DNA of 35,480 nucleotides from the NCBI GenBank assembly GCA_048941265.1, contig JBHLNT010000016.1:1-35480 (forward strand). Direction: 5' to 3'. This document shows, in pieces, positions 1-25,882 of this stretch. Below the pieces are notes generated by a model. The model was given only the letters and a program-made list of their open reading frames with translations. It was not told where the DNA came from and did no database searches. How positions within the stretch are numbered: the stretch's first letter is position 1; every line of letters begins with the position of its first letter. Position numbers and translations under genes: made by a program. Origin of the DNA: Promethearchaeota archaeon (GTDB taxonomy: Archaea; Asgardarchaeota; Lokiarchaeia; Sigyniarchaeales; SOKP01).

Positions 1-1245
1 GTTAGAAAGAAAGCTAGATATGTTACTAATGATTGCAATGGATGTGGAGCTTGCACTGAAGTATGTCCTGCATATGGGTATGATGAATTTAATGAAGGAT
101 TGAATTCGAGAAGGGCGATATATATATCATTTGCTCAAGCTGTTCCCTCGACAGCCCAGATAGATATGACCAAATGCATAAAATGTGGATTATGTAAGAC
201 GACTTGCGAATTAAATGCTATAGATTTTGACCAGAAAGATGAGATCATTGATATTAAGGTTGGATCAATTATCGTAGCTACAGGGTGGGATGAATATGAA
301 CCTGAAACAGGATATTTAGGTTATAACATTTATCCAAATGTAATTACTCAAATGAAACTCGAAAGGATATTAGCTCCCAATGGACCCTCAATAGGACACC
401 TTGCCCGACCTTCTGATGGTAAATTACCTAAGAGAATATTATTCATACAATGTGTTGGTTCAAGAGATCTGAATATGAATATGTATTGTAGTTCTGGTGT
501 ATGTTGTATGATTGCTATTAAAAACTCAAAGTTAATTAAGCAACATTATCCTGATTCAGATATATCAGTCGCTTACATGGACATAAGAGCTGCAGGTAAA
601 GATTATGAAGAATATTTCACTGCATCTAGAAAAGAAGGAATTAGATATATTAGAACTAACGTTTCTAGGATAAAAGAAGACCCCGAAACTCACAACTTAA
701 AGATTTTAATGCAAAATACATTGAGCTCAAGTGAATTAAGAGAGCTTGAATTTGATTTAGTAGTTTTATCTGCTGCTATGGTCCCTGCTAAAGGGGTCGA
801 TAAACTTCAAAAAATATTAAAACTTGAGACGAGTCAAGACGGTTTTTTCAAAGAATTTCATTCAAGATTAAATCCTATTGATACAAAAATACCGGGAATC
901 GTTCTTGCTGGTGTATCTCAAGGACCAAAATCTATCGCAGAGTCTATAGCTCAAGGAAGAGCCGCAGCGTCATCATTATCAAGAATGATGAGTAAAGATA
1001 AATACAGAATCCTTTTAATACGTGCTAATGTTAATAAAGAAGAGTGTGCAAAATGCGGTTTATGTGAATTAAATTGTCCTTATGATGCAATTAGTTTAAA
1101 ATCCGATGGCGCTGAAGTGGATGAGATTTTATGCAGAGGCTGTGGGACATGTCTAGCCAATTGTCCCTCTGAAGCTATAACATTACGTTATTATCGTGAA
1201 CCACAATATGAAAGACAAATAGATGCAATTTTAGAGGAAATATAA
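1..1245 (+). CDS. hdrA: Heterodisulfide reductase subunit A (FAD/4Fe-4S), 5'-truncated by the window edge
   Basis: Frame is open from base 1 (VRKKARYVTNDCNGCGACTEVCP...), so the true start lies upstream of the window. Ferredoxin CxxCxxCxxxC motifs and HdrA signatures GSIIVATG, FIQCVGSRD, YCSSGVCCM, YMDIRAAGK, QGPKSIAESIAQG. Followed by mvhD. Confidence 0.93.
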   Translation, partial: VRKKARYVTNDCNGCGACTEVCPAYGYDEFNEGLNSRRAIYISFAQAVPSTAQIDMTKCIKCGLCKTTCELNAIDFDQKDEIIDIKVGSIIVATGWDEYEPETGYLGYNIYPNVITQMKLERILAPNGPSIGHLARPSDGKLPKRILFIQCVGSRDLNMNMYCSSGVCCMIAIKNSKLIKQHYPDSDISVAYMDIRAAGKDYEEYFTASRKEGIRYIRTNVSRIKEDPETHNLKILMQNTLSSSELRELEFDLVVLSAAMVPAKGVDKLQKILKLETSQDGFFKEFHSRLNPIDTKIPGIVLAGVSQGPKSIAESIAQGRAAASSLSRMMSKDKYRILLIRANVNKEECAKCGLCELNCPYDAISLKSDGAEVDEILCRGCGTCLANCPSEAITLRYYREPQYERQIDAILEEI

Positions 1246-1246
1246 A

Positions 1247-1253
1247 GAGGTGA
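1247..1253 (+). promoter_or_regulatory. Shine-Dalgarno site (GAGGTGA) for mvhD
   Basis: GAGGTGA lies 5 nt upstream of the TTG at 1259 and matches the archaeal anti-SD. Confidence 0.7.
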
Positions 1254-1258
1254 ACGAT

Positions 1259-1732
1259 TTGTCATTAGAAAACAATATTAAAATTATCGCATTTTTATGT
1301 TGGAAATGAGGATACGGGGCAGGGGATATGGCTGGAACAATTCGAGCACAATATCCTGCGACAATTAGACCAATTAGAATTAATTGTACGGGGAGAGTTA
1401 CTCCAAGCTTAATGATGCGAGCGATAGGCAAAGGGGCTGATGGTGTCATTGTGTCAGGTTGATACCCCGGAGAATGTGATTATGAAACTGGAAATCTTGT
1501 AGCTGAAAAAAATGTTCAATATGTAAAAGAAATTTTAAATTCAACCGGGATATCTCCTAATAGAATTCAAATGTTTCACTGTAGTGCTGCGGAAGGACAA
1601 AGATTTCAGGAAGAAATTACACGTATTTCCAGTATTATTGAGAGTCTTGGAAAAAATCCGCTAAAGGAAAGTGATGTTTTAAATAAAAAGGATAAAAAAA
1701 CTATTAATAATGAAAAAACAAAAACCGAATAG
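1259..1732 (+). CDS. mvhD: MvhD/VhuD hydrogenase delta subunit (2Fe-2S), predicted selenoprotein with 2 Sec (UGA at 1307-1309 and 1460-1462), 157 aa
   Basis: Manual translation from TTG 1259: MSLENNIKIIAFLCWK*GYGAGDMAGTIRAQYPATIRPIRINCTGRVTPSLMMRAIGKGADGVIVSG*YPGECDYETGN...MFHCSAAEGQRF...TAG(1730-1732). Matches the MvhD motifs FxCxxC-YxxAD, RxxCxGRV, GADGVxxxGC--GxC and SAAEG, with both TGAs at conserved Cys positions. Absent from the ORF track. Confidence 0.92.
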
Positions 1733-1733
1733 A

Positions 1734-1769
1734 ATGACTCTTGGGAAAAAAATTTAGTCCTAAGAAGAC
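1734..1769 (+). ncRNA. SECIS element, eukaryote/Lokiarchaeota type (AUGA-N...N-GA core, 8-bp helix, A-rich loop)
   Basis: ATGAC at 1734-1738; helix TCTTGGGA (1739-1746) pairs with TCCTAAGA (1758-1765) with one G-U; loop AAAAAATTTAG; AGAC (1766-1769) supplies the tandem G.A/A.G pairs. Starts 2 nt after the stop of a gene with two in-frame UGAs. Confidence 0.8.
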
Positions 1770-1892
1770 TAACCTCGCAAAGGTATCGGAATTAATATTT
1801 TAAATTAGTTTAAAAATTTTATATAATTCTTTTAATTTTCTATGTTAAGATTTTTTTATTTTAAGAATTATAAGTTAAATGTGTAGTTCAAA

Positions 1893-3203
1893 ATGGGAAA
1901 AGATCCTCATCTAAATGCGAAAAAAGAATTAAATAAAGCTGAGCTTTATTTTGATAATGAGCAATATAAAAAAGCAGGAAAATCTTTTAAAACTGCCGGA
2001 GATTTATATTTCAAATTAAAAGAATTCAAAATTGCAAGAGAATGTTATTCATATGCCGCAAAATCTTTTGATTTTGAGAATAGAGCAGATATAACTATTG
2101 AGGCTCTAAGAAACGCAGGTGATTCTTCGCTGTTTGTTGATGATTTTACTACCTCTAATAAATTTTTTAAAAATACCATTCATTATATTCCTAATCTACG
2201 AAAACTTGAAAATCGTAATTTATACTTCTTATTTTTTTCTACACTTTCATATTTATGCTTATTTTTGGAAGGGAAACAAGATCAAGGACTGGATTTTATC
2301 AAAGAGATAAGAAAGGAAGTGGACAAGGATTATTTCAAAGATTCTATTTATATAACACTAATAAAAAATTTGACCATTGCCATCCGAGATAAAAATGAGA
2401 GTTATTTAAATAAAATCGAACAAGACTTCAACCAATATGATTTTAGTTACCCGGAACAAAAACTTTTAAAATTAGTCTTAGCACTTGCTAATGCTCATAT
2501 CTCAATAAAAACAAATATGAGTCTCGATAAAGACCAGTACACAACAAGAGATATGATTACTCTAACGTTAACTCTTGATACAGCACCCATTATTCAAGTC
2601 TCAAAACATTCTTTTTATGATTATAACTTCAAGAAAATAAAAATAACAAACATAACAACGTCCCTCTCTGAGAACATTATCGTGCAAACAAAACCCCCAC
2701 TGCCCATTGATTTAAATCCTGGTGAAAATTTTGATTTTATATTTGCTTTAAAACCACACTTTCAAGTTGATAAACCCTTTATTGGACCATTCTTAATGAC
2801 ATGCGAGTTCGATGATAAATTCATAATACATCGTCAAGATTCGGAAAAAATTGAACCAAATATCATATCTCCTCCTCCATCTTTAGAAATTTCAATGAAA
2901 AATCTTAGACCACCCCTTATTGGTCAATCATTTCCAATGGAGTTCCTAATTGAAAATAAAAGTGAAGGTGATGCTCTAGAACTCAATATTGAAATTGAAT
3001 TTCCTGAACAATTAAAATTAATGAGAGGCACTACTAAAAAGCAGATTTACTCTCTTAGTTCTAATGAGAATATCAATTGGGAACTTTCTCTTAAACCTAT
3101 AGAAGCAGGTGATTATATTATCAAAATGGACATAAAATATAAAGATCCCGACCAAAATCTAATTGAAGAGACCAAATCATTTCCTTTTGCTATTAAAATG
3201 TAA
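1893..3203 (+). CDS. TPR/alpha-SNAP-like helical repeat protein with two C-terminal Ig-like (CARDB/TRAPP-type) beta-sandwich domains
   Basis: N-terminal A-x-x-x-Y/F-x-x-A helical repeats (AGKSFKTAGDLYFKLKEFKIARECYSYAAKSF). C-terminal beta-rich segments (LNPGENFDFIFALKP; FPMEFLIENKSEGDALELNIEIEFPEQL; WELSLKPIEAGDYIIKMDIKYKD). Confidence 0.6.
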   Translation: MGKDPHLNAKKELNKAELYFDNEQYKKAGKSFKTAGDLYFKLKEFKIARECYSYAAKSFDFENRADITIEALRNAGDSSLFVDDFTTSNKFFKNTIHYIPNLRKLENRNLYFLFFSTLSYLCLFLEGKQDQGLDFIKEIRKEVDKDYFKDSIYITLIKNLTIAIRDKNESYLNKIEQDFNQYDFSYPEQKLLKLVLALANAHISIKTNMSLDKDQYTTRDMITLTLTLDTAPIIQVSKHSFYDYNFKKIKITNITTSLSENIIVQTKPPLPIDLNPGENFDFIFALKPHFQVDKPFIGPFLMTCEFDDKFIIHRQDSEKIEPNIISPPPSLEISMKNLRPPLIGQSFPMEFLIENKSEGDALELNIEIEFPEQLKLMRGTTKKQIYSLSSNENINWELSLKPIEAGDYIIKMDIKYKDPDQNLIEETKSFPFAIKM

Positions 3204-3457
3204 GGGCACAATAGTCTTCACCTTAATGATAGAAAAAATTTCCATATTACATGCATGTTTATTTTATAGTTCTCTTATTTCTCTTATCAGCTCTGAAGCT
3301 TCATTAATCTTAGTTTCAATTAAGAACTATATTTCGGAGGGAACATTAGCTATGCAATTTGAATTTTTACCTTATAATTGATAATTAATCATCTATTTTT
3401 ATTTAAAAGTTTCAAGAAAATTAGAAAAAAAAATTTTAAAAAAATGTATTAAATATT

Positions 3458-4549
3458 TCAGCTTTTTATGATTGGAACTAATTTTTCAATAACATCAATA
3501 ATTGCGATCTCTGCATTGTTTTGGTCACCTTTAGATTCGAGCAGAGAGATTGTCCGACCTTGTGCTTCAAGAAGGAGCTTAGGAATTGGAGTTGTCGAAA
3601 TATTTCCCTGATAATCCGGAGCATAGCGAACAAGCAGAGAGACGGGACAAGAAGTTGTGGTCTCTCTCAATATATCCCGAATATTCTTAATAATGACCTC
3701 ATCGGGGCTGGGGATGTCAATACTTAGAAAAATTCCGTCAAAATCATCAGGATAGCCTTTCCACCACGTATTAACATTCAGTAATTTCGGTTTCTTCAGG
3801 TTTAAAATTTCACTGGCTTCTAGTTTTCCTCCTTCTATAATAAGATGGGGAAAACGGTATGAGAAGTAGTCCTTTTCAACAGTACAATTGGACGCACATA
3901 ACAGATCGAAATTTTGCTTCACGGCATAACGAAGAGTCGGAAGCACATCCCAAGTTGATCCAAAAATGCCCAAGCGGATGGTCCGCCCTAATGAGCTCCC
4001 TATCGTTTCGAGAAAATAGATATTTTTACTTAACGCAGTGTATGGAGTCGTGTCTCCTGATTTTAATTCTTTTATTCTGTAGCGTTCCTCATTAACGAGT
4101 TCCATTAAATTCGTATTTAATTCGTCTAAACCTTGTTTAGTAATATCATTTACATCCTCTTTATTCTCGAACCAATTATCCAATGCGATTTGAATATTTT
4201 TGCGGCATCGCGAAAACAAGTGGTCGTGGCAAACTGGAAAAAAAACCATGAGAAATGTTGGTGTTAAATTTCCTTCACGTGCTACTCTGGGATCTTTAAT
4301 TGTCTCATCCTTGGCTAGAGTGCAGTAAATAAAGGAGAGCTGATCATAGTGATATGCGACGGGCAATGGACCGAAAAGGAGCCCTTTTTTATCTCGTACT
4401 GTGCTAAAAATTACCGAATAATAGTTTCCAATTGTCATAAGTTCCACTTCTTTCAAAAAGGGAACGTTTTGGGAAATCATTAACTCGATACCATTATCGG
4501 TGAGTTCGAAACAACTTATAAAAATATCCGTCGGATTCACTTTTTGCAC
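3458..4549 (-). CDS. Longin/uDENN-like N-terminal domain fused to a degenerate small-GTPase-like domain
   Basis: N-terminus resembles Asgard longin-like proteins (FISCFELTDNGIEL...GLLFGPLPV...DPR...MVFFP). The C-terminal ~175 aa keep the GTPase strand order (IRLGIFG, FDGIFLSID, PVSLLV, ISLLES..NNAEIAI) without GKT/DxxG/NKxD. The start may be the GTG at 4540, since GAGGTG precedes it. Confidence 0.55.
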   Translation of the reverse strand: MQKVNPTDIFISCFELTDNGIELMISQNVPFLKEVELMTIGNYYSVIFSTVRDKKGLLFGPLPVAYHYDQLSFIYCTLAKDETIKDPRVAREGNLTPTFLMVFFPVCHDHLFSRCRKNIQIALDNWFENKEDVNDITKQGLDELNTNLMELVNEERYRIKELKSGDTTPYTALSKNIYFLETIGSSLGRTIRLGIFGSTWDVLPTLRYAVKQNFDLLCASNCTVEKDYFSYRFPHLIIEGGKLEASEILNLKKPKLLNVNTWWKGYPDDFDGIFLSIDIPSPDEVIIKNIRDILRETTTSCPVSLLVRYAPDYQGNISTTPIPKLLLEAQGRTISLLESKGDQNNAEIAIIDVIEKLVPIIKS

Positions 4550-5426: not shown

Positions 5427-6368
5427 TCACCTTATCCTCCTTTCTTTAATTACGGGTTTTGTCAGCATTCTGTTTCCGAGTAGTATATAAAATTCGGCAT
5501 CTGCGTTAGAACAGTGAAATATATCAGCAGCTTCTGGTACAATGGCATTATCTTGAATAATACCTTTTTCTTTATAGTTCTTAACGATCTCTTTAACACG
5601 CCATGCCTGTTCATAGATTTCAGAGAGAACTTGGATTATTTTAGCTGTATCGTTGGATTGAATGGCTGTAGCAAGTAGATCTGTGACATGAGATTCATAC
5701 AAAGAGAAAACTTCTTGGTTCTCAAAATCTACAATAGTAAGTTTGTCCATGTGCTGTTCGACTATTATCTCCGTTTCTTGGTTAGTAGGCATTCCGATCA
5801 ATTTGAAATCGTCCGAAAAGCTCTCGGTATATGTAGCCATTAAAGTATTTTTGGCTAATTCAGAAGGTAGAAGTGAAAGGAGGGCTAAAAATAGTTTTTT
5901 GGTCCTCTGTTCTTCATTACTTAACGCTATTATCGGACTACCTGTTAGAGTCGCAAATAAGAGCCCGTTTAATCCTTTCAGTTCCGCTAGATCTGATACT
6001 GAATAATCCGTATTGATGTTAACATTTGGTAATTTACTATGAGTATTTAGATACTCATTTAATGTTTTGGTATCGGGATAAAGTGCCAAATTATCCGTGA
6101 GGTTGTCGGTAGAGGCTAGAAGAATCCCTATCAGAGCATGTTCTGGATTCCCAACATATTGTAGATAGAATGCTGTACCATTTCTAGTGATAATGTTTGA
6201 GAATGTTTCATTTGGATCGCTCACATTAATTAAAGTAAGTATCATCTGTTCCTCATCCTTAGACAAAGTACTTTCGATAAATTCAACGCCGGTATATTCG
6301 CGTGTAACTTTAATAATCCCGTATTTGAGGGTTTTATCTTGTAAAGACAATGAATTTTCTTTAACCAT
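5427..6368 (-). CDS. DENN-like protein (putative GTPase regulator/GEF)
   Basis: LLFATLTGSPIIALSNEEQRTKKLFLALLSLLP...DFKLIGMP...LTIVDFENQEV follows the cDENN pattern (LLxALL-xxxIIxxS...ALLSLLxP; FLIG; VIVDLD), preceded by a longin-like alpha/beta N-terminus and followed by a helical C-terminus. Lies 24 nt downstream of a GTPase gene. Confidence 0.6.
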   Translation of the reverse strand: MVKENSLSLQDKTLKYGIIKVTREYTGVEFIESTLSKDEEQMILTLINVSDPNETFSNIITRNGTAFYLQYVGNPEHALIGILLASTDNLTDNLALYPDTKTLNEYLNTHSKLPNVNINTDYSVSDLAELKGLNGLLFATLTGSPIIALSNEEQRTKKLFLALLSLLPSELAKNTLMATYTESFSDDFKLIGMPTNQETEIIVEQHMDKLTIVDFENQEVFSLYESHVTDLLATAIQSNDTAKIIQVLSEIYEQAWRVKEIVKNYKEKGIIQDNAIVPEAADIFHCSNADAEFYILLGNRMLTKPVIKERRIR

Positions 6369-6392: not shown

Positions 6393-6968
6393 TTAAAATA
6401 CATTACTGCGTTCCATTGCACTTACAAACCACAGCATAGCATCTTCAACACCATTCCCAAACTTAGCGGAAGATGGTAAAAACGCCACTGTCCGTGCCTT
6501 TAATTTATCGAGAGGGTAAATTTTTCCAAATTCCTTCGGATTAATTGGATTTTCGTCTACTAAATCTTGTTTGTTCAGCAAGATCAGGATTACTGCGTCT
6601 TCGGGAATAAGATCCATGGCATAGATATACTGTTGTTTTTGAAACTCGAAAATCTCAGGCCGATTTTCCGGTCTCACCGTCGCATCAATTAGATAGATAA
6701 AGGAATTCGCTTGTTCCACAGCAAGTTCCCAGAATACTTCCTGGTACACTTGTTGGCCACCCACATCAATCAGCTGAAACCGCCAATTAGCAATTTCAAC
6801 ACCTCTTTGCCGGATTTCAATCCCTAGCGTAGACAAAGGAACTTCTAATTGGGGCATCCCTGTTTCTAGAAATTTAACCAATGTAGTCTTTCCAGATTGG
6901 GACGGACCAAGAATACTGATGTTTGCTCGTTTTTCTAATTTTCTACTTTTTAAAAGACTTTTAAGCAT
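6393..6968 (-). CDS. Arf/Sar-family-like small GTPase
   Basis: G1 GPSQSGKTT, G2 STLG, G3 DVGGQ, switch II Trp (FWE), G4 NKQD, G5 SAK, C-terminal AMLWF and N-terminal amphipathic MLKSLLKSRK. No Gly2 for myristoylation. Confidence 0.85.
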   Translation of the reverse strand: MLKSLLKSRKLEKRANISILGPSQSGKTTLVKFLETGMPQLEVPLSTLGIEIRQRGVEIANWRFQLIDVGGQQVYQEVFWELAVEQANSFIYLIDATVRPENRPEIFEFQKQQYIYAMDLIPEDAVILILLNKQDLVDENPINPKEFGKIYPLDKLKARTVAFLPSSAKFGNGVEDAMLWFVSAMERSNVF

Positions 6969-8218: not shown

Positions 8219-8761
8219 CTATTTAGGACGGGTTATAATTAGATTGGTAAGTCTTTCAAAAAGTAAAGACACATTTTCACCCGTTTTAGCGGAACATTCA
8301 AGATAATCATAAACTCCATTAAAGGACTCGGCAATTTCCTGTGCATCCTCAAAGCTAACAGCTCTTTTATATTCCAAATCTTTTTTGCTTCCAACCATTA
8401 ATAGAGGAATTTTTGATCCATTTTTCTTACCACCCTCTTCAAAAATTTCCATCCAACTGTTAAAATTTCTAAAACTGGAAAACCTCGTGATATCATACAA
8501 GAAAATTGCGCCAGCTGTCCCTAATAAATAGTTAGGAAGAATGAATCTGAAACGGTCTTCCCCAGCAAAATCCCATATTTGTAAAGTAACCGCCCGTCCA
8601 TTAAATTCTAAATTTTTTATGTAAAAATTAACACCAATTGTTATTTTTAGGTTATCTTTAAAAACATCCGTCAGATAACGGTTAATCAGAGTTGTTTTAC
8701 CAACCCCCCCATCCCCAAGAATGCAGATCTTGTATATCATTTGAGACATTAACTGAGACAT
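8219..8761 (-). CDS. Rab-like small GTPase
   Basis: GDGGVGKTT, TIGVNF, LQIWDFAGEDRF, GSKKDL, ECSAKTGENV. No C-terminal prenylation Cys. The catalytic Gln is replaced by Glu (DFAGE). Confidence 0.9.
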   Translation of the reverse strand: MSQLMSQMIYKICILGDGGVGKTTLINRYLTDVFKDNLKITIGVNFYIKNLEFNGRAVTLQIWDFAGEDRFRFILPNYLLGTAGAIFLYDITRFSSFRNFNSWMEIFEEGGKKNGSKIPLLMVGSKKDLEYKRAVSFEDAQEIAESFNGVYDYLECSAKTGENVSLLFERLTNLIITRPK

Positions 8762-8999: not shown

Positions 9000-10529
9000 A
9001 TGAAGCTAAAAGTAAAAAAAATCAATTTTGAGACAGGAAATACCAAAGATGTAATTATTAATGTTAAAGATGCTGCTGAACTTGGTCAAAAAGCCGGTGA
9101 ACGAATTATTATTAAAAATATTAAATCTAAATCGATAAACAATAAATCTCGGGTTGCGATTATAGAAATTTCTTATTCCGATACCATAGTTGCTCCAGGA
9201 GAGATTGGAATATTTATAGATACTATTAAAGATATAGAAGAAAATACAATTGTCTCAGTAAAACCTATTGATCCTCCTGATTCATTTAAATTTATTCGGA
9301 AAAAAACTCGAGGTGAAAAATTAACTAGTGAAGAAATTAATAGAATCATCTCAGATGCAGTCTCAGGTCATCTTTCCCAAATCGAATTGGCTTCATTTAT
9401 AACTAGCGTGAAAATAAATGATATGGATAACGAAGAGATGACCGCTTTAACCTTAGCTGAAACTAGAAGCGGGGAAATTTTTTACTTTGGCATGGACGTA
9501 TATGATAAACATTCAACTGGTGGTGTTCCAGGCAATAAAGTATCTTTAATAATCGTACCTATTGTGGCAGCTGCTGGATTAATTATTCCAAAAACTAGTA
9601 CACGTGCTATTACATCACCTTCCGGAACCGCAGATAGTATGGAAGTTTTAGCTCCAGTTGCTTTTAATTCTGAAGAAGTGAAAGAAATTATCTCGAAAGA
9701 AAAAGCATGTATCGTATGGGGAGGGGCATTAGATATCTCACCTGCCGATAATATCTTAATTGAGATTGAGCGCCCCTTACGTATGGATCCAGTAGGTTTA
9801 ATGATTCCCTCTATCTTAACAAAAAAACTTTCTATGGGGGTTAAGAAATTAATATTAGATATTCCAGTTGGTGGAGGAACGAAATTTCCAACTATTAATG
9901 ATGGAGAAAGTTTTGCCCATATTTTTAAAGGAATTGCCCGAAATGTAGGAATTGAAGCTGAATGTGCCTTAACATTAGCACATCAACCTATTGGTCATTG
10001 TATTGGTCCTGCGATTGAGGCTCAGGAAGCCTTAACATTATTGAGAGATTATTCCGCAGGACCTAATTCTCTTATTGAAAAATCAACATCTCTTGCAGGA
10101 ATACTTCTTGAAATGGGAGGAAAAGCAGAAAAAGGAAAAGGTCAATATTTAGCAAAAGAAATTTTGAAAACTGGTAAAGCTTATGAAAAAATGAAGCAAA
10201 TCATTGAGATACAGGGCGGAAATCCTAATATTTTACCAGATGATATTGAATTAGGACCACATGAGAAAAAGTTTACGGCAACTAAAGAGGGACACATAAC
10301 TGAAGTGAATAATGCGATTATTAATCAAATTGCAAAAGCAGCAGGCTGTCCAAATTCAAGAACTTCGGGAGTAAAACTTTATAAAAAGCAGGGCGCGCGA
10401 ATTAAAGAAGGCGATTTAATTTTCAAGATCTATTCAGATAGTCCTTCAAAATTGAAGAGGGCAGAAAAAATATATAATTCTACTGGAGGACCTATAATTC
10501 TGGGTGGGATGATGATTGAGAGGATCTAA
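9000..10529 (+). CDS. deoA: AMP phosphorylase (thymidine phosphorylase family, archaeal long form)
   Basis: DKHSTGGVPGNK, IPKTSTRAITSPSGTADSMEVLAPV, WGGALDISPAD, QPIG..IGPAIEA and an N-terminal beta extension; 509 aa. Confidence 0.93.
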   Translation: MKLKVKKINFETGNTKDVIINVKDAAELGQKAGERIIIKNIKSKSINNKSRVAIIEISYSDTIVAPGEIGIFIDTIKDIEENTIVSVKPIDPPDSFKFIRKKTRGEKLTSEEINRIISDAVSGHLSQIELASFITSVKINDMDNEEMTALTLAETRSGEIFYFGMDVYDKHSTGGVPGNKVSLIIVPIVAAAGLIIPKTSTRAITSPSGTADSMEVLAPVAFNSEEVKEIISKEKACIVWGGALDISPADNILIEIERPLRMDPVGLMIPSILTKKLSMGVKKLILDIPVGGGTKFPTINDGESFAHIFKGIARNVGIEAECALTLAHQPIGHCIGPAIEAQEALTLLRDYSAGPNSLIEKSTSLAGILLEMGGKAEKGKGQYLAKEILKTGKAYEKMKQIIEIQGGNPNILPDDIELGPHEKKFTATKEGHITEVNNAIINQIAKAAGCPNSRTSGVKLYKKQGARIKEGDLIFKIYSDSPSKLKRAEKIYNSTGGPIILGGMMIERI

Positions 10530-10764
10530 TTTATGTCATTTTTAAATAACTTTACTTAATTACAGGGGTAATATTAATAAGTAAGTTTCTATTATCGCTT
10601 GAGATGTTCACTTTTTCATTTTTATATACAATTTATTTTATTTTTGAAATTTTTGAAATTATACCATTTTCTTGTCAAATTCTTGTTTTATTAGAATTGA
10701 ATTGAAAGGATTTAATATTTTACAATATTATTAGACTTATTGATTGCGAGAAGAAAAACGAAAT

Positions 10765-12261
10765 ATGGTCCAGTCGCCCATAACAGTATATGAGAATTTA
10801 AAAAAAGGCAAAATAGATAAACTTTCAGCTACAGAAATTCTAATCTCATTAATCGAAAATATAGATGAGGTAGAGGTTAGACTAGAAAGTATCAATACTT
10901 TACAAAAAATTAGATTTAGAAATAATAAGGTTTTTTCAATATTAGAAAACCTTTTACTCGCTGATTCTAATGAGAATATTCGAAATTCAGCAGGTAATGT
11001 CTTAACAGATTTATTTGAAAACAAAGCATTATCTCCACTAAAATGGGCTTTGGAACATGAAAAATCATTAAATTGCTTAACAAATACAATTTCAAATATA
11101 GGAAATATTGATGATAATAAAGCTAAATACGTTATTTTAAACAAAATAAGTGAAATTAACAAAAAAAAATACCGATATAATCTTAAAATAATATTCAAAG
11201 AAAATAATATAAACTCACTTTCTAATAAGGAACTCGCTGAATTGCTCATTGATTATTATATAATCTCTTCATTAAAGATAAAATTTGGATATCTTAAATT
11301 TGAATCAAATAAAAGTGGTTCGGTAATAAATTTAGATTTATCCAATGTTGATGTACAAAGTATTAATAAATTAACGAATTATTTGGAATCTATATTATCT
11401 CTCTCTTTTCTGCGAAATCTTGATTTAAGTAACAATGATTTGATGAGATTACCTTTAAAACCTGATAAAAAACTCTCCCTCGAACAGCTGAATCTAAGTT
11501 ATAATAGGTTAATTAAACTTCCAGAATCAATAAGCACCCTAAAATTACTAAAATCGTTAAATTTGAAATTCAATAAATTGAGAAATCTGCCTGATTCTAT
11601 TGGTACTCTAATAAATCTTGAATATTTAAATATAAGATCAAATCAACTTAAAAATCTGCCTGATTCTATTGGCTCTTTAAAAAAACTCAAAATTTTAGAT
11701 TTACAGGGAAACAAGCTTACACACTTACCTAAAGCATTAGCTGATCTTAAAAGTCTGAAAGAGCTGCAATTAGGTGGAAATAATTTTAATGAAATTCCTG
11801 GAAGTATTAAAGTTCTGAAATCCTTGAAAAATTTAGGATTGGAAAGAAATAATTTTTCCACTATTCCAAAATGGTTTGAAAATCTTAATTCTCTCAAAGA
11901 GTTAGATTTACATGATAACTTTTTAATTGAAATTCCAAATAATAATTCATTACCACCTTCTCTTGAACTCCTAAATTTTAGAAATAATAAACTCTCATCA
12001 ATTCCATTTTCATTAACTCATCTTATTTATCTAAAAAGGTTAAATTTATCATGGAATAACCTAAGAGAGCTTCCAGATTGGATAGGAGCTCTAACTTCTC
12101 TGGAAGAATTAAATTTATGGGGTAATAAATTGAATACTCTTCCAGATTCGATCATAAAACTTAAATTTCTCAAAAATCTTTATTTAAATTTTACAAATAT
12201 AAAAGAACTGCCTGATTCATTAAAGTTATTGGAAAAGAGAGGGGTTAAAATTAGTCTATAG
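10765..12261 (+). CDS. HEAT-repeat + LRR protein (paralogue 1)
   Basis: N-terminal HEAT-like LENLLLADSNENIRNSA...PLKWALEHE, then 23-aa LxxLxLxxNxLxxLPxxI repeats. ATG 10765 aligns with the paralogue starts (ORF track starts at TTG 10744). Confidence 0.88.
   Translation: MVQSPITVYENLKKGKIDKLSATEILISLIENIDEVEVRLESINTLQKIRFRNNKVFSILENLLLADSNENIRNSAGNVLTDLFENKALSPLKWALEHEKSLNCLTNTISNIGNIDDNKAKYVILNKISEINKKKYRYNLKIIFKENNINSLSNKELAELLIDYYIISSLKIKFGYLKFESNKSGSVINLDLSNVDVQSINKLTNYLESILSLSFLRNLDLSNNDLMRLPLKPDKKLSLEQLNLSYNRLIKLPESISTLKLLKSLNLKFNKLRNLPDSIGTLINLEYLNIRSNQLKNLPDSIGSLKKLKILDLQGNKLTHLPKALADLKSLKELQLGGNNFNEIPGSIKVLKSLKNLGLERNNFSTIPKWFENLNSLKELDLHDNFLIEIPNNNSLPPSLELLNFRNNKLSSIPFSLTHLIYLKRLNLSWNNLRELPDWIGALTSLEELNLWGNKLNTLPDSIIKLKFLKNLYLNFTNIKELPDSLKLLEKRGVKISL
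11583..11672 (+). repeat. Exact 21-bp direct repeat (AAATCTGCCTGATTCTATTGG) in adjacent LRR units
   Basis: Copies at 11583-11603 and 11652-11672, 69 bp (one 23-aa LRR) apart. Confidence 0.85.
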
Positions 12262-12354
12262 CTTTCAATTCAATATTTTTGTATAAAAAATCGTGTTGTT
12301 ATAAAATAAAATCAAAACTTTAAAAATAATAAAGCAATTTATTGAACTAGAATA

Positions 12355-13860
12355 ATGGAAATATCTCCAAAACAGATTTACAAAGAGTACACTGATAAAA
12401 ATTTAGCCGCAATGAATGCAGTAGATCAATTAATTTCATTAATTGACAATTCAGATACTGCTGACATTAGAATTGAAAGTATAGAATTCTTAGAAAAAAT
12501 TGGTTCTAAAGATGATAATGTGTTTAACCATTTAGAAAATCTACTAATATCTGATTCAAATGAGAATGTAAGAAATAAAGCTGCACGAGCTATCAAAAAT
12601 CTTTTTATTGATAAAGCCTTTGAACCAATGAAATGGGCTTATCATCATGAAACATCAGTAAATTGCTTAATCATAATTATTTCGACTTTAGGTGAAATTA
12701 GGAGCCAAAAATCTCAACAATTTTTAATTAATATAATGAAAAAAATTGAAAATCATCAATTTAAAAAAAGTATCAATGAATTCTTTAAAAATGAAGAATT
12801 TAATAGACTTTCCAATCAGGTTCTCGCTGATATTGTTAATAATTATATTGTAATTAAGAATTTTGAAGAAAAATTTACGAAAATCAGCTATAAAATTAAT
12901 AATGGATTTGTTGCTGAATTAGATCTATCTTGTATTAGTAGCAATATTTTTGGATGGAATATTTTAAAAAACCTCCCGGATTTTATAAGTGTCTTAAAAT
13001 ACTTAAAAAAACTCGATTTAAAAATTAACAGAATCGCATCATTGCCAACCTCAATCGGCTCTCTTTCATCACTTAAATATCTAGATTTGAGTAATAATGT
13101 CATTAAGCGTTTGCCAGAATCAATTGGTAATTTAAATCTATTAGAATTTCTTTATCTACGATATAATAATTTAAAAAACATTCCAAAATCTATTGGCTTA
13201 TTGAAGAATCTAAAAATATTAGATTTAAGACACAATAAATTATCATCTCTCCCCGAGACAATTCATAACTTATACTCTCTTGAAGTCTTTGATCTTCATG
13301 GAAATCAAATAGATGAACTTCCCGTTTCTCTAAAGCAGATCTCATCTCTTAAGAAATTAGAATTAGGGTTAAATAATCTAAAATTTTTACCAATTTGGAT
13401 GAAAGATCTCAGAGATTTAAAAATTTTGGGATTGGGAGGAAATAAACTATTATTTAAACTTCCTGAATGGATTGGATCATTATCTTCTCTCTTAGAATTA
13501 CATTTATACGATAATAATCTTAGTGAACTCCCAAATTCTATAGGTTTATTAAGTTCTTTGGAAGAATTAACATTGCGAAATAATCAACTTACTACACTAC
13601 CAGAATCATTTAGAAATTTATATTGTCTTAAAAAATTAAATTTAAGTTGGAATAACTTTACAAACCTCCCCGATTGGATTGGTTCTCTGACATCTTTAGA
13701 AGAATTAAATTTATGGGGAAATAAACTCAAAAATCTTCCCGATTCAATTAGGAATCTCACATCTCTAAAGGTTATAAATTTAAATTTTAATAAATATATC
13801 ACTGAACTTCCCGAATCCATTAAATACTTGGAAAAAAAAGGAGTTATTATCTATATATAA
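12355..13860 (+). CDS. HEAT-repeat + LRR protein (paralogue 2)
   Basis: Same N-terminal module (LENLLISDSNENVRNKAA...PMKWAYHHE) and regular LRRs; last repeats nearly identical to paralogue 1. Confidence 0.9.
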   Translation: MEISPKQIYKEYTDKNLAAMNAVDQLISLIDNSDTADIRIESIEFLEKIGSKDDNVFNHLENLLISDSNENVRNKAARAIKNLFIDKAFEPMKWAYHHETSVNCLIIIISTLGEIRSQKSQQFLINIMKKIENHQFKKSINEFFKNEEFNRLSNQVLADIVNNYIVIKNFEEKFTKISYKINNGFVAELDLSCISSNIFGWNILKNLPDFISVLKYLKKLDLKINRIASLPTSIGSLSSLKYLDLSNNVIKRLPESIGNLNLLEFLYLRYNNLKNIPKSIGLLKNLKILDLRHNKLSSLPETIHNLYSLEVFDLHGNQIDELPVSLKQISSLKKLELGLNNLKFLPIWMKDLRDLKILGLGGNKLLFKLPEWIGSLSSLLELHLYDNNLSELPNSIGLLSSLEELTLRNNQLTTLPESFRNLYCLKKLNLSWNNFTNLPDWIGSLTSLEELNLWGNKLKNLPDSIRNLTSLKVINLNFNKYITELPESIKYLEKKGVIIYI

Positions 13861-13887
13861 AAATAATATGCAATGTGAAATAAAAAA

Positions 13888-15246
13888 ATGGAATTAACGC
13901 CCAGTAAAATCTACGAAGAATATTTAAAAAATAATCTAGATAAATTCTCTGCAGTAGATTTATTATTTTCATTAATAGATAATAGTGATAAAGAAAAAAT
14001 AAGAGTTGAGAGTATTAAGGAATTGGAACATATCAGAATAAATGATGTTAAAACATTTAAACATTTAGAACATTTATTAATTTCAGACTCAAGTGAAAAG
14101 GTAAGAAACACAGCGGCTTTAATGCTCAGAAGCCTTTTCTTAGATAAAGCATTAGAGCCAATGAAATGGGCGTTAAAACATGAGGATTCACCTTTATGCT
14201 TAAAAACGATTTATTTAACCCTTTTGGAAATAATTCACAATATTGTTTCACGAGAAGATGAGATATCCAAGCTAGTATTACTTACCGAAGTAGAGAAAAT
14301 TGAAAATAAAGAATTTAAAATTGGATTTGAAACATTACGTGAATTGAATGGAATCGAGAGTTTTACAGTAGCGGAATTAGCTAATATTTTAATTAATTAC
14401 TTAACCCTATTATTCTTAAAAAAAACTTACTGGAGATTAAAATTTAAAATTGAATCCTGTAAAATTGTAGAATTAGACTTTATTTTTAAAGGATTAACAC
14501 ATTTACCAGAAGCCATAAAGAATCTTACTTCTCTTAAAACACTAATTTTTAGATATAATCAAATATTTGAATTACCAGATTGGATTGGATCGCTAACTTT
14601 GCTTGAAAATTTAAATTTTAATGTTAATAATATTAAAAAACTCCCTTATACTATAGGATCACTAACTTCTCTTAAATCTTTGTCACTTTGGAAGAATGAA
14701 ATTAAATCCCTTCCCGATACTTTAGGTTTATTAATTTCCTTAGAAATCCTTAATCTAAGAATTAATGATTTAAAAGAATTGCCAGAAACCATCGGGAATT
14801 TAAATCTTCTTAAGGAATTGAATTTACATGATAATAAGTTGCATATAATACCCCATTCAATAGGGTCTTTATTCTCATTAAAATCTCTTAATTTAAGTTG
14901 GAACAATTTGGGAGTTATTCCTGAAACTATCGGTTCACTTGATTCCCTTGAAATTTTAGATTTGGAGAGAAATGAATTAACCTCTATTCCTGGATCTATT
15001 GGCTTTTTAAAATCCTTAAAAAGTTTAAATTTAAGTGATAATAGATTAGTAGAACTTCCTGAGTCCTTAGGATCTTTGTCACCACTTCAATATCTTAATA
15101 TCTCGAGAAACTATTTGAAAACAATTCCAAAATCTTTAACAAAATTATCAAATTTAAATGAGCTATATTTAAATGATAATAAATTTAATGATATTTCAAA
15201 TATACTAGAAGAGTTAGAAAATAATGGTGTTCAAATTTATTATTAA
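13888..15246 (+). CDS. HEAT-repeat + LRR protein (paralogue 3)
   Basis: LEHLLISDSSEKVRNTAA...PMKWALKHE followed by LRRs of the LPxxIGxLxxL type. Confidence 0.9.
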   Translation: MELTPSKIYEEYLKNNLDKFSAVDLLFSLIDNSDKEKIRVESIKELEHIRINDVKTFKHLEHLLISDSSEKVRNTAALMLRSLFLDKALEPMKWALKHEDSPLCLKTIYLTLLEIIHNIVSREDEISKLVLLTEVEKIENKEFKIGFETLRELNGIESFTVAELANILINYLTLLFLKKTYWRLKFKIESCKIVELDFIFKGLTHLPEAIKNLTSLKTLIFRYNQIFELPDWIGSLTLLENLNFNVNNIKKLPYTIGSLTSLKSLSLWKNEIKSLPDTLGLLISLEILNLRINDLKELPETIGNLNLLKELNLHDNKLHIIPHSIGSLFSLKSLNLSWNNLGVIPETIGSLDSLEILDLERNELTSIPGSIGFLKSLKSLNLSDNRLVELPESLGSLSPLQYLNISRNYLKTIPKSLTKLSNLNELYLNDNKFNDISNILEELENNGVQIYY

Positions 15247-18200: not shown

Positions 18201-19187
18201 ATGAGCAACAATATTCTAAAATTAACAATCCCTAAAGGTAGTTTACAGGATGTGGTTTCCTCCTTTTTTCAAAGAGCTGGTCTTAAACTAAGCTTTGCGT
18301 CTAGTAGGGACTATAGACCTTCTATTAGCGATCCGGAAATATATGTGAAATTATTACGTCCACAAGAAATTCCAAATTATTTAGTAGGTGAAGATGAATT
18401 TGATGTAGGGATTTCAGGAATAGACTGGGTAAAAGAAACTAATGCAGATGTGGAAGTTATTTTGGATTTGGAAATTGGCGGAGTAAAAATAGTTTTCTGT
18501 GTTCCAAGTACATGGGATAAAATAAATTCGGTTAATGAACTTATCAAAAAATTTAATGATGATAAGAAAGTATTACGTATATCAACTGAGTATTTAACCC
18601 TTTCCTTGAATTATTTAAAAAGTAATGAAACATACAAAGAACTTTATGGAAATAAAGCTCCATTAGTAATTACTCCTTGGAAAACCTGGGGAGAAAATGA
18701 TAAGGTTAAGATTTTTCTCTCATTTGGTGCAACCGAGGCAAAACCTCCTGAAGAAGTTGATGCCATAATAGATAATACCCAAACAGGCTCAACTTTAAGA
18801 GCAAATAATCTTAAAATTGTTGATATAATTGATAGTTCTACTGCCGTGCTGATTGCCAATAAATATGCTTTAAAAAACGAATGGAAAAAAGAGAAGATAA
18901 AGGATTTAAAGGTATTATTACTCGGCGTAATAGAAGCCTCAAAAAAGCTTCATATTTTTATGAATGTAAGAGAGGAAAATTTGAATAAAATTTTAAGAAA
19001 ACTACCCGCTCTAAAGAGGCCGACAATTTCAAAACTGGCTGGAGAGGACACGGATGGATGGTTTGCAATAAATACTATTATTAAAAAAGATGAATTTTTA
19101 AGCTTAATACCAATGCTAAGAAAATACGCACAAGGATTAGTTGTACACGAACCTCGACAGATTTTACCCCTAGAGTTAATTAAATAA
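18201..19187 (+). CDS. hisG: ATP phosphoribosyltransferase (long form)
   Basis: IPKGSL, LRPQEIP, DVGISGIDW, GATE, AIIDNTQTGSTLRANNL and a C-terminal regulatory domain (LPALKRPTIS). Confidence 0.95.
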   Translation: MSNNILKLTIPKGSLQDVVSSFFQRAGLKLSFASSRDYRPSISDPEIYVKLLRPQEIPNYLVGEDEFDVGISGIDWVKETNADVEVILDLEIGGVKIVFCVPSTWDKINSVNELIKKFNDDKKVLRISTEYLTLSLNYLKSNETYKELYGNKAPLVITPWKTWGENDKVKIFLSFGATEAKPPEEVDAIIDNTQTGSTLRANNLKIVDIIDSSTAVLIANKYALKNEWKKEKIKDLKVLLLGVIEASKKLHIFMNVREENLNKILRKLPALKRPTISKLAGEDTDGWFAINTIIKKDEFLSLIPMLRKYAQGLVVHEPRQILPLELIK

Positions 19188-19195
19188 AATCAAAG

Positions 19196-20494
19196 ATGGT
19201 TTTTGTGAATTTATTAAAAATAATCAATTCAAATCAAATTTCAGAAGAAACTCTTTCTAATTTTATTCCAAGGACATCTACGCAATTACATGAGATTAAG
19301 GAAGAGGTCCTCTATATTATCAATGAAGTTAAACGAAATGGAGACAAAGCAATCATAAGTTTCACTAAGAAATATGACAAGGTTGAAATAAATCAATCAG
19401 AAATCAGAGTTACTGAAAAAGAAATAACTGATGCCTATGAAAAAATTGATAAAAAATTATTAGAAGCACTCAGATATGCGAAAAAAAATTTAATAAAATT
19501 TCATAAAGCACAATTAAGGGAAGATTGGAAAATTGAAATAGAGAAAGGGATTAATGCGGGTCAAATTTATAGACCTTTAGAATCAATAGGGATTTATATT
19601 CCAGGAGGACGTGCAATATATCCAAGTACCGTTTTAATGGCAGCTACACCTGCTTATGTTGCTGGTGTAAAAACCATAATTTTATGCACCCCTCCGCAAA
19701 AAGATAAAAATGTTGCTCCAGAAATTATTGTGGCAGCTAAAGAATTTGGAATCGACAAAATCTTTAAAGTTGGAGGTGCACAAGCCATAAGTGCTATGGC
19801 CTATGGTACTGAAACAATCCCTAAGGTGCCAAAAGTAATTGGACCGGGGAACAAATGGGTTAATGCTGCTAAACAACTTCTATCAAACGATATTGCCATA
19901 GATAATCCCGCTGGCCCTTCTGAAATATTAATTATAGCTGATGAAAATGCTAATTTTAAATATGTTATCCTTGACCTTCTCTCCCAACTAGAGCATGATC
20001 CCGATAATATTGGTATAATTATCACAAACTCTGAGGAATTGATTAAAAAAATTGAAGATAATTTAGAATATTACTTAAACCAATCAATTAGGAAAGATAT
20101 CATAAAGCATGCATTGAAGAACAATTCATTGGTGATTAAAGCTAAAAATCTTGAGGAATGTTGTAAATTAAGTAACTTAATAGCGCCGGAACACTTAGAA
20201 ATCTTAGTTTATAACCCCAGAAGGCTTTTACCGGATATTAGAAATGCAGGAGCAATTTTTATTGGACCTCATACTCCAGTACCCTTAGGAGATTATTCTG
20301 CTGGCACAAACCATGTATTGCCAACTGGGGGAAAAGCCACACAATATTCAGGTTTGAACGTCTATGATTTTTTAAAAATTATAGAAATTTTGGAATGTGA
20401 TAAAGAGGGACTTAAAAAACTTAGTAATTCAGCATCCACAATAGCAGAATTCGAAGGTTTTTTCGCTCATAAAAAATCAATTGAAGAAAGATAA
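19196..20494 (+). CDS. hisD: Histidinol dehydrogenase
   Basis: GIYIPGGRAIYPSTVLM, GGAQAI, GPGNKWV, PAGPSE, SQLEHD, APEHLE, GDYSAGTNHVLPT. Confidence 0.96.
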   Translation: MVFVNLLKIINSNQISEETLSNFIPRTSTQLHEIKEEVLYIINEVKRNGDKAIISFTKKYDKVEINQSEIRVTEKEITDAYEKIDKKLLEALRYAKKNLIKFHKAQLREDWKIEIEKGINAGQIYRPLESIGIYIPGGRAIYPSTVLMAATPAYVAGVKTIILCTPPQKDKNVAPEIIVAAKEFGIDKIFKVGGAQAISAMAYGTETIPKVPKVIGPGNKWVNAAKQLLSNDIAIDNPAGPSEILIIADENANFKYVILDLLSQLEHDPDNIGIIITNSEELIKKIEDNLEYYLNQSIRKDIIKHALKNNSLVIKAKNLEECCKLSNLIAPEHLEILVYNPRRLLPDIRNAGAIFIGPHTPVPLGDYSAGTNHVLPTGGKATQYSGLNVYDFLKIIEILECDKEGLKKLSNSASTIAEFEGFFAHKKSIEER

Positions 20495-20596
20495 CGTAAT
20501 AAAAATTAAATGTTATTGCTATTTTTCTTATTATATAATATTATTTAGAAATACCGTGTAAATTATTAATTTAAATTAGAGATATAGGTAATATAA

Positions 20597-21691
20597 ATGG
20601 ATTTGAATAATCTACTTAGAGCTTCTCTCAAAAGATATTCTGCATACGAACCTGGCGAGCAACCTACTGATAATGGATGGATCAAATTAAATACCAATGA
20701 GAATCCATATCCTCCAGTTCCCGAAATTTTGGAGGATATTAAAAATGCTATTGATGTACGGATGAACCGGTATCCCGATCCTTTAGCGCTTGAAGTTCGC
20801 AAGGCATTGTTAAATCAATTATTGAGGGATAAAGATACTCTTACGAATAGGAATACAGTTTTTGTAGGAAATGGATGTGATGAAATTTTAGATACGGTGT
20901 TTAAAGTTTTTATAGATCCGGGAGATGAGGTTGTATTTTTTTATCCTTCATATGGATTGTATAAAGTATTGGCATCTTTATATAATGCTAAAATAAATGA
21001 GATAAAGCTAAATGATGATTTTTCATTTCCAGAATCTATTTTTTCAGCGAAAGTTAGCGGAAAATTATTATTCATAAATTCACCAAATAATCCTAACGGA
21101 AAATCATATGGAAATGCTGCTATTTTAAAGATCTGCAGCAATTTTTCAGGAATAGTGGTTGTGGATGAAACTTATGCAGATTTTTCAGATCAAACTAGTT
21201 TACCTCTATTAAAAAAAGTAAAAAATCTGATTGTGGCTCGTACGTTTTCCAAAACCTTCTCATTAGCATCAATGCGTTTTGGATATGCTCTTGCAGATGC
21301 TGATATTATTAAAGAAATGAATAAGGTAAAATTGCCATATAATACTAATTATTTAGCACAAATCGCCGCTCTTTCATGTATTAAATATCGAGACAAATTA
21401 TATGAGCAAAATAAAAAAATCATTGAAGAACGAAATAGATTATCCAAAGAATTAAATAATTATAATGGAATTACGGTATTACCTTCAGATGCTAACTTTT
21501 TATGCATAAAATTCGATGATAAATCTATTGCCTTGAAATTTTTATGGGATCTGAAAGATAAATACAAGATTCTGGTAAGACATTTTAATAAACCAGGATT
21601 ATATCAATACTTAAGAGTTACAATTGGAACATTAGAAGAAAATAATAAATTTTTAGATGCTTTTAGAGATCTTGTAAATACTTATCTATGA
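20597..21691 (+). CDS. hisC: Histidinol-phosphate aminotransferase
   Basis: IKLNTNENPY, NRYPD, GNGCDE, SPNNPNG, VVDETY, RTFSKTFSLASMRFGY (PLP Lys), LRVTIGT. Confidence 0.95.
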   Translation: MDLNNLLRASLKRYSAYEPGEQPTDNGWIKLNTNENPYPPVPEILEDIKNAIDVRMNRYPDPLALEVRKALLNQLLRDKDTLTNRNTVFVGNGCDEILDTVFKVFIDPGDEVVFFYPSYGLYKVLASLYNAKINEIKLNDDFSFPESIFSAKVSGKLLFINSPNNPNGKSYGNAAILKICSNFSGIVVVDETYADFSDQTSLPLLKKVKNLIVARTFSKTFSLASMRFGYALADADIIKEMNKVKLPYNTNYLAQIAALSCIKYRDKLYEQNKKIIEERNRLSKELNNYNGITVLPSDANFLCIKFDDKSIALKFLWDLKDKYKILVRHFNKPGLYQYLRVTIGTLEENNKFLDAFRDLVNTYL

Positions 21692-24857: not shown

Positions 24858-25805
24858 ATGAGTTTAACCCCATTAAAAATCTATCAAGATTTAAAGGAAA
24901 ATAAATTAGATAGAAAAAGTGCTGCGGAAATTTTATTAATGTTAATTGAAAACAGCGAAGATGATGATGTGAGAATTGAAAGCATAAAATTATTAGAAAA
25001 GATCGGTTTCAAAAATGACAAGCTTTTCAAAGTCTTAGAAGGTTTGTTAATTTCTGATTTAAATGAGAGAGTTAGATATATCGCGGCGGTATATATTACA
25101 GATTATTTTATAGACAGAGCACTCTCACCTATGAAATGGGCCCTTGAATATGAATCAAATTATGATTGCCTAATTTTAATTATTAAAACACTAGCTAAAA
25201 TCGGCAGCAACGAAGCTAAAGAAACATTATTAGATGACCTAAAGAGGATTAAGAAAAGAAAATACATAGATAAAGATAGGCAATATCATAATAAGTTTAA
25301 AAAGTCTCTTAAAAAATTATTAAAATCCAAGAAGATTAAAAACCTCCATTGTGAAGATTTGGCTGATATAATAATTAATTACAAAACTATTGAAACGCTG
25401 ATTAAAACTTTTTTTACAATATATTATAAAGTCGAAAATGGTTTAGTTACCGAATTAGATTTATCAGATTTGGGATGGAATGTAAATGTATGGAGGCAAA
25501 AATATGCAGAAAAAGTCGAGGAAATATCCGAAATAGTTGGTCTCATGAATTTAAAGAACTTAAAATCACTTGATCTTTCTAATAATAGGATTAGCTTTAT
25601 TAAAGATCTCCTAAACCTTAAGAAATTAACTCACTTATACATTTCCAACAATAAATTGAATTTGGATAATATAGAATTTTTTGAAAAGATGGATAATTTA
25701 AAATTTTTAGATATACATGGAAATGAAATCGCTACTAGCATTAAATTTCTTGAACTTAGAAAAAAATTAGATGTTAAATTAAAGAGTAATCTCCTATTTG
25801 AATGA
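24858..25805 (+). CDS. HEAT-repeat + short SDS22-type LRR protein (paralogue 4)
   Basis: Same N-terminal HEAT module (LEGLLISDLNERVRYIAA...PMKWALEYE) and about 3 LRRs (LKSLDLSNNRI, LTHLYISNNKL, LKFLDIHGNEI). Confidence 0.85.
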   Translation: MSLTPLKIYQDLKENKLDRKSAAEILLMLIENSEDDDVRIESIKLLEKIGFKNDKLFKVLEGLLISDLNERVRYIAAVYITDYFIDRALSPMKWALEYESNYDCLILIIKTLAKIGSNEAKETLLDDLKRIKKRKYIDKDRQYHNKFKKSLKKLLKSKKIKNLHCEDLADIIINYKTIETLIKTFFTIYYKVENGLVTELDLSDLGWNVNVWRQKYAEKVEEISEIVGLMNLKNLKSLDLSNNRISFIKDLLNLKKLTHLYISNNKLNLDNIEFFEKMDNLKFLDIHGNEIATSIKFLELRKKLDVKLKSNLLFE

Positions 25806-25882
25806 AGTATTTAACTATTTAAATTTCAGATTATTCAAATAATTAAAAAGGTAGCTATACATATTTTTTTATCTGAGTGAAG

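Follow-up and report, generated by a model that had tools for sequence, protein, structure and literature searches.

Positions 1259-1732 of the forward strand hold an intact, full-length MvhD/VhuD gene, which contains UGA at codons 17 and 68. Coordinates are those of the window, the whole 35,480-nt stretch of DNA that was analyzed. We are confident that the product is an iron-sulfur electron-transfer subunit of the MvhD/VhuD type, that its partner is the HdrA whose gene lies upstream in this Asgard (Promethearchaeia/Lokiarchaeia-type) archaeon, and that both UGA codons are decoded as selenocysteine (Sec). Site-specific Sec recoding had been the central claim of the original prediction, and it is supported by the conservation of the two TGA codons, by Cys codons at the same positions of paralogous genes, by X residues at both positions of the solved chain 9sfi_K and by a covarying SECIS element after the stop codon.

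Results

An intact mvhD/vhuD frame interrupted only by two TGA codons

When TGA is translated as Sec (U), the frame opens with TTG at 1259 and closes with TAG at 1730-1732, which gives a coding sequence of 157 codons plus the stop. The only in-frame stops inside 1259-1732 are the TGA at 1307-1309, which is codon 17 and belongs to the motif CWKU, and the TGA at 1460-1462, which is codon 68 and belongs to the motif SGUYPGEC (GU..GEC). There is no further lesion, and the strand opposite 1259-1732 is closed, with no open frame. The TTG start is preceded, five bases upstream, by GAGGTGA (1247-1253), which resembles a Shine-Dalgarno sequence and may function as one, and the position of the start is matched by database homologues of 153-160 amino acids.

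We found that the 157-residue product matches the Pfam family FlpD (PF02662, methyl-viologen-reducing hydrogenase delta subunit) over the entire profile, with residues 9-131 aligned to profile positions 1-123 of 123 (E 6.4e-43) and a score of 146.1 bits against a curated cut-off of 22.3. The claim of a full-length mvhD frame that is free of lesions apart from TGA at codons 17 and 68 therefore holds, both in translation and in the FlpD match. The NCBIfam model for VhuD (NF045873) gave 149.8 bits, which is below its cut-off of 215, and for this reason we file the protein as an MvhD-family Sec protein ("VhuD-like") and not as the Methanococcales VhuD type of that model. Among homologues in the PDB the best match was chain 9sfi_K, which aligned to residues 9-136 with an E value of 3.5e-36. 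Additionally, the five-position pattern CxxC, C, C....C is present as a combination of Cys and Sec, at C14, U17, C43, U68 and C73, and the three Cys residues C14, C43 and C73 are invariant among the 120 protein homologues listed.

A Lokiarchaeota-type SECIS element directly behind the stop codon

Immediately after the gene, at 1734-1768 of the same strand, lies an element of the Lokiarchaeota type (type I, eukaryote-like) SECIS, as judged from pattern, covariation and RNAalifold. It is composed of AUGA at 1734-1737, a stem formed by 1738-1746 with 1758-1766, an apical loop AAAAAAUUUAG at 1747-1757, and GA at 1767-1768. The nine stem positions comprise eight standard pairs and a C.A at the base, and the loop of 11 bases has an A-rich start and ends in AG. 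The AUGA starts two bases 3′ of the TAG, which places the SECIS 427 and 274 bases downstream of UGA codons 17 and 68, respectively; in relatives, the position of the AUGA ranges from an overlap with the stop codon to 26 bases behind it.

The SECIS pattern was examined in 81 sequences, consisting of the window and 80 related loci. The strict pattern occurred in 67 of the 81 and the relaxed core in 80, the lone miss being a locus that ends too early. The columns of the U, G and A of AUGA and GAC were invariant in 80 sequences. Covariation was assessed on a MAFFT alignment of 80 sequences made from sequence only, in which all nine stem pairs showed compensatory changes and 90.3% of the cells were paired. 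The observed covariation score was reached by none of 500 shuffles, and controls in which the stem was slid along the alignment were 32-50% paired. RNAalifold predicted the same stem.

Within this genome, the pattern was present behind all three mvhD paralogues with two TGA codons and behind none of the six that have Cys codons at both sites. Searched genome-wide, the strict pattern gave 15 matches, compared with 5, 8 and 13 in three shuffled genomes of this AT-rich composition. The strict pattern is thus unspecific in an AT-rich genome, and the case for the SECIS rests on its position and covariation and not on the motif. Further strict matches were located on C159 (minus strand; near 1405, 1767 and 2365), at C334:33517(-), at C349:2040(+) and at C262:15966(-); some of the further genomic matches probably mark real selenoprotein genes. 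An Rfam search of window positions 1-3500 with E values up to 10 returned no SECIS family, and two chance snoRNA-like matches inside hdrA were its only matches. Standard SECIS tools are reported to miss lokiSECIS elements (Mariotti et al., PMC4989117).

A closing helix and a side hairpin flank the SECIS arm

The SECIS is embedded in a larger, three-armed element at 1725-1789 (plus strand), which we delineated by alignment, covariation and shuffling and which adds a closing helix and a side hairpin to the SECIS arm. The closing helix pairs CCGA at 1725-1728 with UCGG at 1786-1789. All of the 80 sequences allow this helix to be drawn. It is near-invariant, with one compensatory case (L072, GCGA/UCGC), and about 35 rows of the MAFFT alignment have it out of register. 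The CCGA is kept whether it falls inside the last codons of the gene or behind the stop.

The side hairpin is situated between the GA of the SECIS and the UCGG of the closing helix, and pairs ACCU at 1772-1775 with AGGU at 1781-1784 around the loop CGCAA. Compensatory changes were found at two of its four pairs, and 89.9% of the cells were paired. Of 80 sequences, 78 had a hairpin of at least four pairs, where 200 shuffles gave 44.3 on average and 58 at most, and 65 had one of at least five pairs, where the shuffles averaged 14.7, both being counts over related sequences that are not independent of each other.

We tentatively raise the idea, which we hold to be possible but rather doubtful, that the SECIS behind hdrA-mvhD is a conserved three-way junction made of the CCGA/UCGG helix, a kink-turn SECIS arm and the 3′ side hairpin. 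The extra arm could then dock an archaeal SECIS-binding factor and could help a single element to recode UGA codons that lie hundreds to thousands of bases 5′ of it, in two cistrons. In the portions of PMC4989117 available to us, no SECIS-binding factor is known from archaea. The portions of PMC4989117 and PMC11227280 that we consulted, supplements aside, contain no description that we could find of a closing helix or side hairpin for hdrA/vhuD.

The genome encodes most of a Sec pathway

We searched for the Sec machinery in the genome assembly, which comprises 5.0 Mb in 361 contigs and is 91% complete. A SelB/EFSec gene is located at C284:20463-21356(-) and scored 246.2 bits against a cut-off of 242.25. 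SelD, at C297:3133-3933, exceeded its cut-off with 185.4 bits, and a single in-frame TGA places U in the motif GUSCK, at the canonical site. The selD frame (locus L012:1468-2510) ends in TGA, and by eye an AUGA-containing stretch behind it is a candidate SECIS with an apical ministem (type II-like). SepSecS is represented by its C-terminal 44% at the edge of contig C196, with a score of 196.5 bits.

The gene for tRNA-Sec was located by BLAST with tRNA-Sec genes of relatives from the same family. It lies at C284:25544-25652(+) (locus L121:6545-6653), about 4.2 kb from SelB and on the opposite strand. Its anticodon, UCA, sits in the loop CUUCAAA, its D-arm is interrupted by an intron of 33 bases, and the gene is truncated within the T-loop by the end of the contig. 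The Rfam score of the partial gene is 24.3 bits (E 0.0084). A complete tRNA-Sec gene was present in seven of nine congeners, where all seven copies end in GCCA and six of the seven have a second intron, in the T-loop.

Standard tools miss this tRNA because of its intron and the cut by the contig end. ARAGORN found no tRNA-Sec in the window or in the whole genome, and its total of only 10-12 tRNAs in 5 Mb suggests that many tRNA genes here bear introns. In each of the ten genomes searched within this genus, tRNA-Sec was missed both by ARAGORN and by Rfam at the gathering score. Several other candidates were set aside. Three sub-threshold Rfam matches to tRNA-Sec occur in the genome, of which two are called tRNA-Arg and an intron-bearing tRNA-Gly by ARAGORN; the third weak match, 102 bases at C307:18832-18933(-), was read as a tRNA-His that has an acceptor stem of eight pairs, a GUG anticodon arm and, ahead of this arm, an intron. 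A structure-pattern search for tRNA-Sec was too permissive, with 807 matches, and a tighter pattern that excluded positions less than 60 bases from contig ends missed the real gene.

Searches of the 91%-complete assembly with TIGR03574, with Pfam KTI12 and by tblastn with a congener PSTK found no PSTK, the only matches being two ORFs resembling APS kinase at about 32 bits. PSTK is present in eight of nine congeners (E 1e-34 to 1e-47), and because of this we attribute its absence here to a gap in the assembly as the likelier explanation. The original prediction had proposed a genome search for tRNA-Sec, SelB/EFSec, SelD, PSTK and SepSecS, with a genome devoid of Sec machinery counting against it. 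That is not the case, since SelB, a Sec-containing SelD, a partial SepSecS and a partial tRNA-Sec were recovered; PSTK was the component that was not.

The missing PSTK would fit read-through of the UGA codons without Sec, whereby a near-cognate tRNA inserts Cys or Trp, or the Sec pathway itself inserts Cys when selenium is scarce. Against this, a SECIS, SelB, tRNA-Sec, SepSecS and a Sec-containing SelD are all present, and VhuD of Methanococcales has Sec at the orthologous positions (PMC4989117, citing Wilting et al. 1997). We consider this reading unlikely, and favor decoding of both UGA codons as Sec.

Both TGA codons are conserved and align with Cys

Related loci were collected by scanning one genome per prokaryote species, and the best 80 of 90 relatives were compared at the DNA level. 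These 80 are Asgard-type bins, except for one labelled Kosmotogaceae. The search had no bias toward TGA, since two of its six patterns encoded Cys at these sites. We found TGA at both codons in every one of the 80 related loci compared (the best 80 of 90 relatives), at 68-87% protein identity. Orthologues in which the TGAs appeared as unconserved nonsense mutations would have counted against the original prediction, and the orthologue comparison gave no such refutation.

The genome contains ten mvhD paralogues. TGA occupies both sites in three of these and the first site alone in a fourth, and the remaining six have a Cys codon (TGT or TGC) at each site. Accordingly, the position of codon 17 is a Cys codon in six of the ten and that of codon 68 in seven of the ten, and the six Cys/Cys paralogues bear out the assignment of both TGAs to Cys positions of MvhD. 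The other two paralogues with two TGA codons, at C350:3979-4404(-) and C301:42470-42871(+), each have a SECIS behind them. The paralogue with a single TGA, at C251:9490-9870(-), has no SECIS by the strict pattern, and could have a variant signal or be a decaying copy. In the solved chain 9sfi_K, X stands at exactly the two positions aligned with 17 and 68.

With ten mvhD paralogues in one genome, this copy could be a pseudogene in decay and its TGAs nonsense mutations, the more so as six Cys/Cys paralogues could cover the function and PSTK is lacking from the assembly. A decaying copy, however, is hard to reconcile with two TGAs that are kept in every one of the best 80 relatives at 68-87% identity, with a frame free of other lesions, with a covarying SECIS behind the stop, or with the placement of both codons at the exact Sec sites of known VhuD (9sfi_K; PMC4989117), and we give the pseudogene reading hardly any credence. 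The functional, Sec-containing gene is the reading that we retain.

Protein databases present a different picture of the two residues. In a very large protein collection, a word-indexed search listed at least 120 homologues at 70-87% identity, and among those listed, W stands at position 17 in 119 of 120 and at position 68 in 120 of 120. The W-bearing homologues come from short contigs, the longest being about 0.6-5 kb. Taken at face value, these residues would suit a genetic code in which every TGA specifies an amino acid, Trp or Gly. Of the 25 large ORFs examined in this window, however, 4 have TGA as their stop, namely 3458-4549(-), 5427-6368(-), 20597-21691 and 24858-25805. One of them is a hisC-type aminotransferase (20597-21691, stop TGA at 21689-21691) whose Pfam match spans residues 28-355 of 364. 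TGA had already been noted as an ordinary stop elsewhere in the window, at "hisC, 25805", which is true, with the clarification that two different ORFs are meant, each ended by TGA. The use of TGA as a stop in these ORFs indicates that the recoding is site-specific. Furthermore, the two sites align with Cys and not with Trp in the paralogues and in solved MvhD. The W residues are most simply explained by a gene caller that reads TGA under a Trp code on short contigs, and their occurrence at both sites across at least 120 protein clusters is apparently a systematic annotation artefact, which fits the expectation that such genes are usually misannotated. We judge an altered code to be as improbable as a pseudogene, and Sec at both positions is again preferred.

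Lastly, sequencing or assembly errors in a single metagenome bin, fragmented though it is into 361 contigs, can be dismissed as the source of the TGAs, which recur in the 80 other genomes (best 80 of 90 relatives) and over which contigs from public runs of two other studies have the same letters among the best-supported differences listed, with none differing (X3 record 24, 1158-1498; X4 record 32, 1421-1689).

Genomic context of mvhD

Upstream of mvhD, on the same strand, positions 1-1245 hold the 3′ part of an hdrA gene (heterodisulfide reductase subunit A-like) that ends with TAA at 1243-1245. This ORF matched the NCBIfam model HdrA2 (NF040770) with 478.7 bits over profile positions 230-643 of 777 and contains Fer4 domains. 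It corresponds to the C-terminal two thirds of HdrA, as the contig (C138, 1-35480) starts here and cuts the gene. The part of hdrA that is present is free of in-frame TGA, and the gap between hdrA and mvhD is 13 bases. Hydrogenase genes (vhuAGU) were not found inside the 35,480-nt window, and the region 5′ of hdrA falls beyond the contig start.

The remainder of the window has several features of separate interest. Eukaryote-like genes of a kind that typifies Asgard archaea lie at 6393-6968(-), 8219-8761(-), 10744-15246(+) and 24858-26842(+). They encode an Arf-family and a Ras-family small GTPase and five leucine-rich-repeat proteins, three of these five in tandem and with HEAT-like N-termini. 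A nucleoside/AMP-phosphorylase-like gene with Glycos_transf_3 domains and a homologue of the RuBisCO large subunit are located at 9000-10529(+) and 28195-29523(-), and a histidine-biosynthesis cluster with hisG, hisD and hisC-type genes occupies 18201-21691.

Discussion

Relation to known hdrA-vhuD systems

The arrangement of a two-Sec mvhD behind hdrA is already known from a publication of 2016 and a catalogue of 2024. Mariotti et al. (2016, PMC4989117) described tandem selenoprotein genes for HdrA and VhuD in Lokiarchaeota that have one lokiSECIS in common, and Huang et al. (2024, PMC11227280) catalogued pairs of hdrA and frhD, together with type I eSECIS-like structures, from across the Asgard archaea. 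According to the parts of the latter article available to us, 57.3% of the Asgard archaea that use Sec have selenoproteins of the FrhD/MvhD/VhuD group, whose genes are always neighbors of hdrA. A VhuD with two Sec residues is given in PMC4989117 and also in PMC13188914, a 2026 review with the table row "CxxU, 2". The description of VhuD as a selenoprotein of Lokiarchaeota and Methanococcales, and of the whole as a known phenomenon, was thus correct in the light of PMC4989117 and PMC11227280, as far as those sources were available.

Compared with the Lokiarchaeota HdrA-VhuD pair as it appears in the consulted parts of PMC4989117, nothing essential differs. The gene described here shares with it a VhuD of about 150 amino acids, two Sec positions and a single SECIS beside the vhuD stop. 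The lokiSECIS traits set out in section 11 of that article are an AUGA, a stem of nine pairs, an 11-base loop that is A-rich and then ends in G, mostly as AG, and a GA; the element at 1734-1768 agrees with them feature by feature. The SECIS is therefore of the eukaryote-like Loki type, in contrast to the GAA_A type of euryarchaea. In Lokiarchaeum, EFSec and tRNA-Sec are linked on opposite strands and the tRNA-Sec has one intron, of 31 bases, in the T-loop (PMC4989117). The genome analyzed here likewise has both genes on one contig and on opposite strands, with an intron in tRNA-Sec; unlike the single T-loop intron of Lokiarchaeum, the intron here is in the D-arm, and most congeners have a second one in the T-loop. 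Another difference from the Lokiarchaeota pair is that hdrA is cut by the contig start, which puts any Sec codons of its own out of view.

Among proteins of solved structure, the VhuD chain 9sfi_K belongs to the same fold family, and both of our Sec positions correspond to its two X residues; by analogy, the protein would be expected to form part of a [2Fe-2S] relay to HdrA. It differs from VhuD in the narrow sense in its NF045873 score (149.8 against 215 bits), in a host that is not a methanogen and in having no vhuAGU adjoining in the window. The Cys-type MvhD proteins (PDB 5odc chain D, 7bkb chain F and 9sw2 chain D) share the same full-length domain, and their five Cys residues correspond to C14, U17, C43, U68 and C73. 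In contrast to these proteins, Sec replaces Cys at two of the five positions.

A model for Sec insertion and electron transfer

From the 13-base gap and the Shine-Dalgarno-like motif that mvhD has of its own, we infer that hdrA and mvhD would be transcribed together into one mRNA with one SECIS. The SECIS, two bases after the mvhD stop, would recruit SelB/EFSec with Sec-tRNA-Sec, which would then read the UGA codons, and a SECIS-binding factor may take part. Sec-tRNA-Sec would be made by the PSTK/SepSecS route, with selenophosphate supplied by SelD, itself a predicted selenoprotein. By what is established for the Sec pathway, selenium would be inserted at UGA 17 and UGA 68.

As in MvhD/VhuD complexes of solved structure, the finished protein may pass electrons one at a time, by way of a [2Fe-2S] cluster, to the bifurcating FAD in HdrA (PMC6019823 and PMC13518236, in the parts available to us). 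The original prediction placed both Sec residues at Cys positions of the 2Fe-2S motifs, but they need not both be cluster ligands. In the MvhD homologue BamF, Sec19 is reported, in the consulted part of a 2026 preprint (10.64898/2026.04.10.717634), to lie near the cluster without being a ligand and possibly to form a selenenylsulfide. If Sec19 of BamF corresponds to U17 here, then by analogy Sec68 would be one of four cluster ligands.

Significance

The gene adds one more case to the published hdrA-vhuD arrangement of Asgard archaea and brings no new principle. Standard ORF calling splits or drops mvhD at its two TGA codons, and reconstructions of the electron-bifurcating HdrA/MvhD module in this organism should restore the 157-residue selenoprotein.
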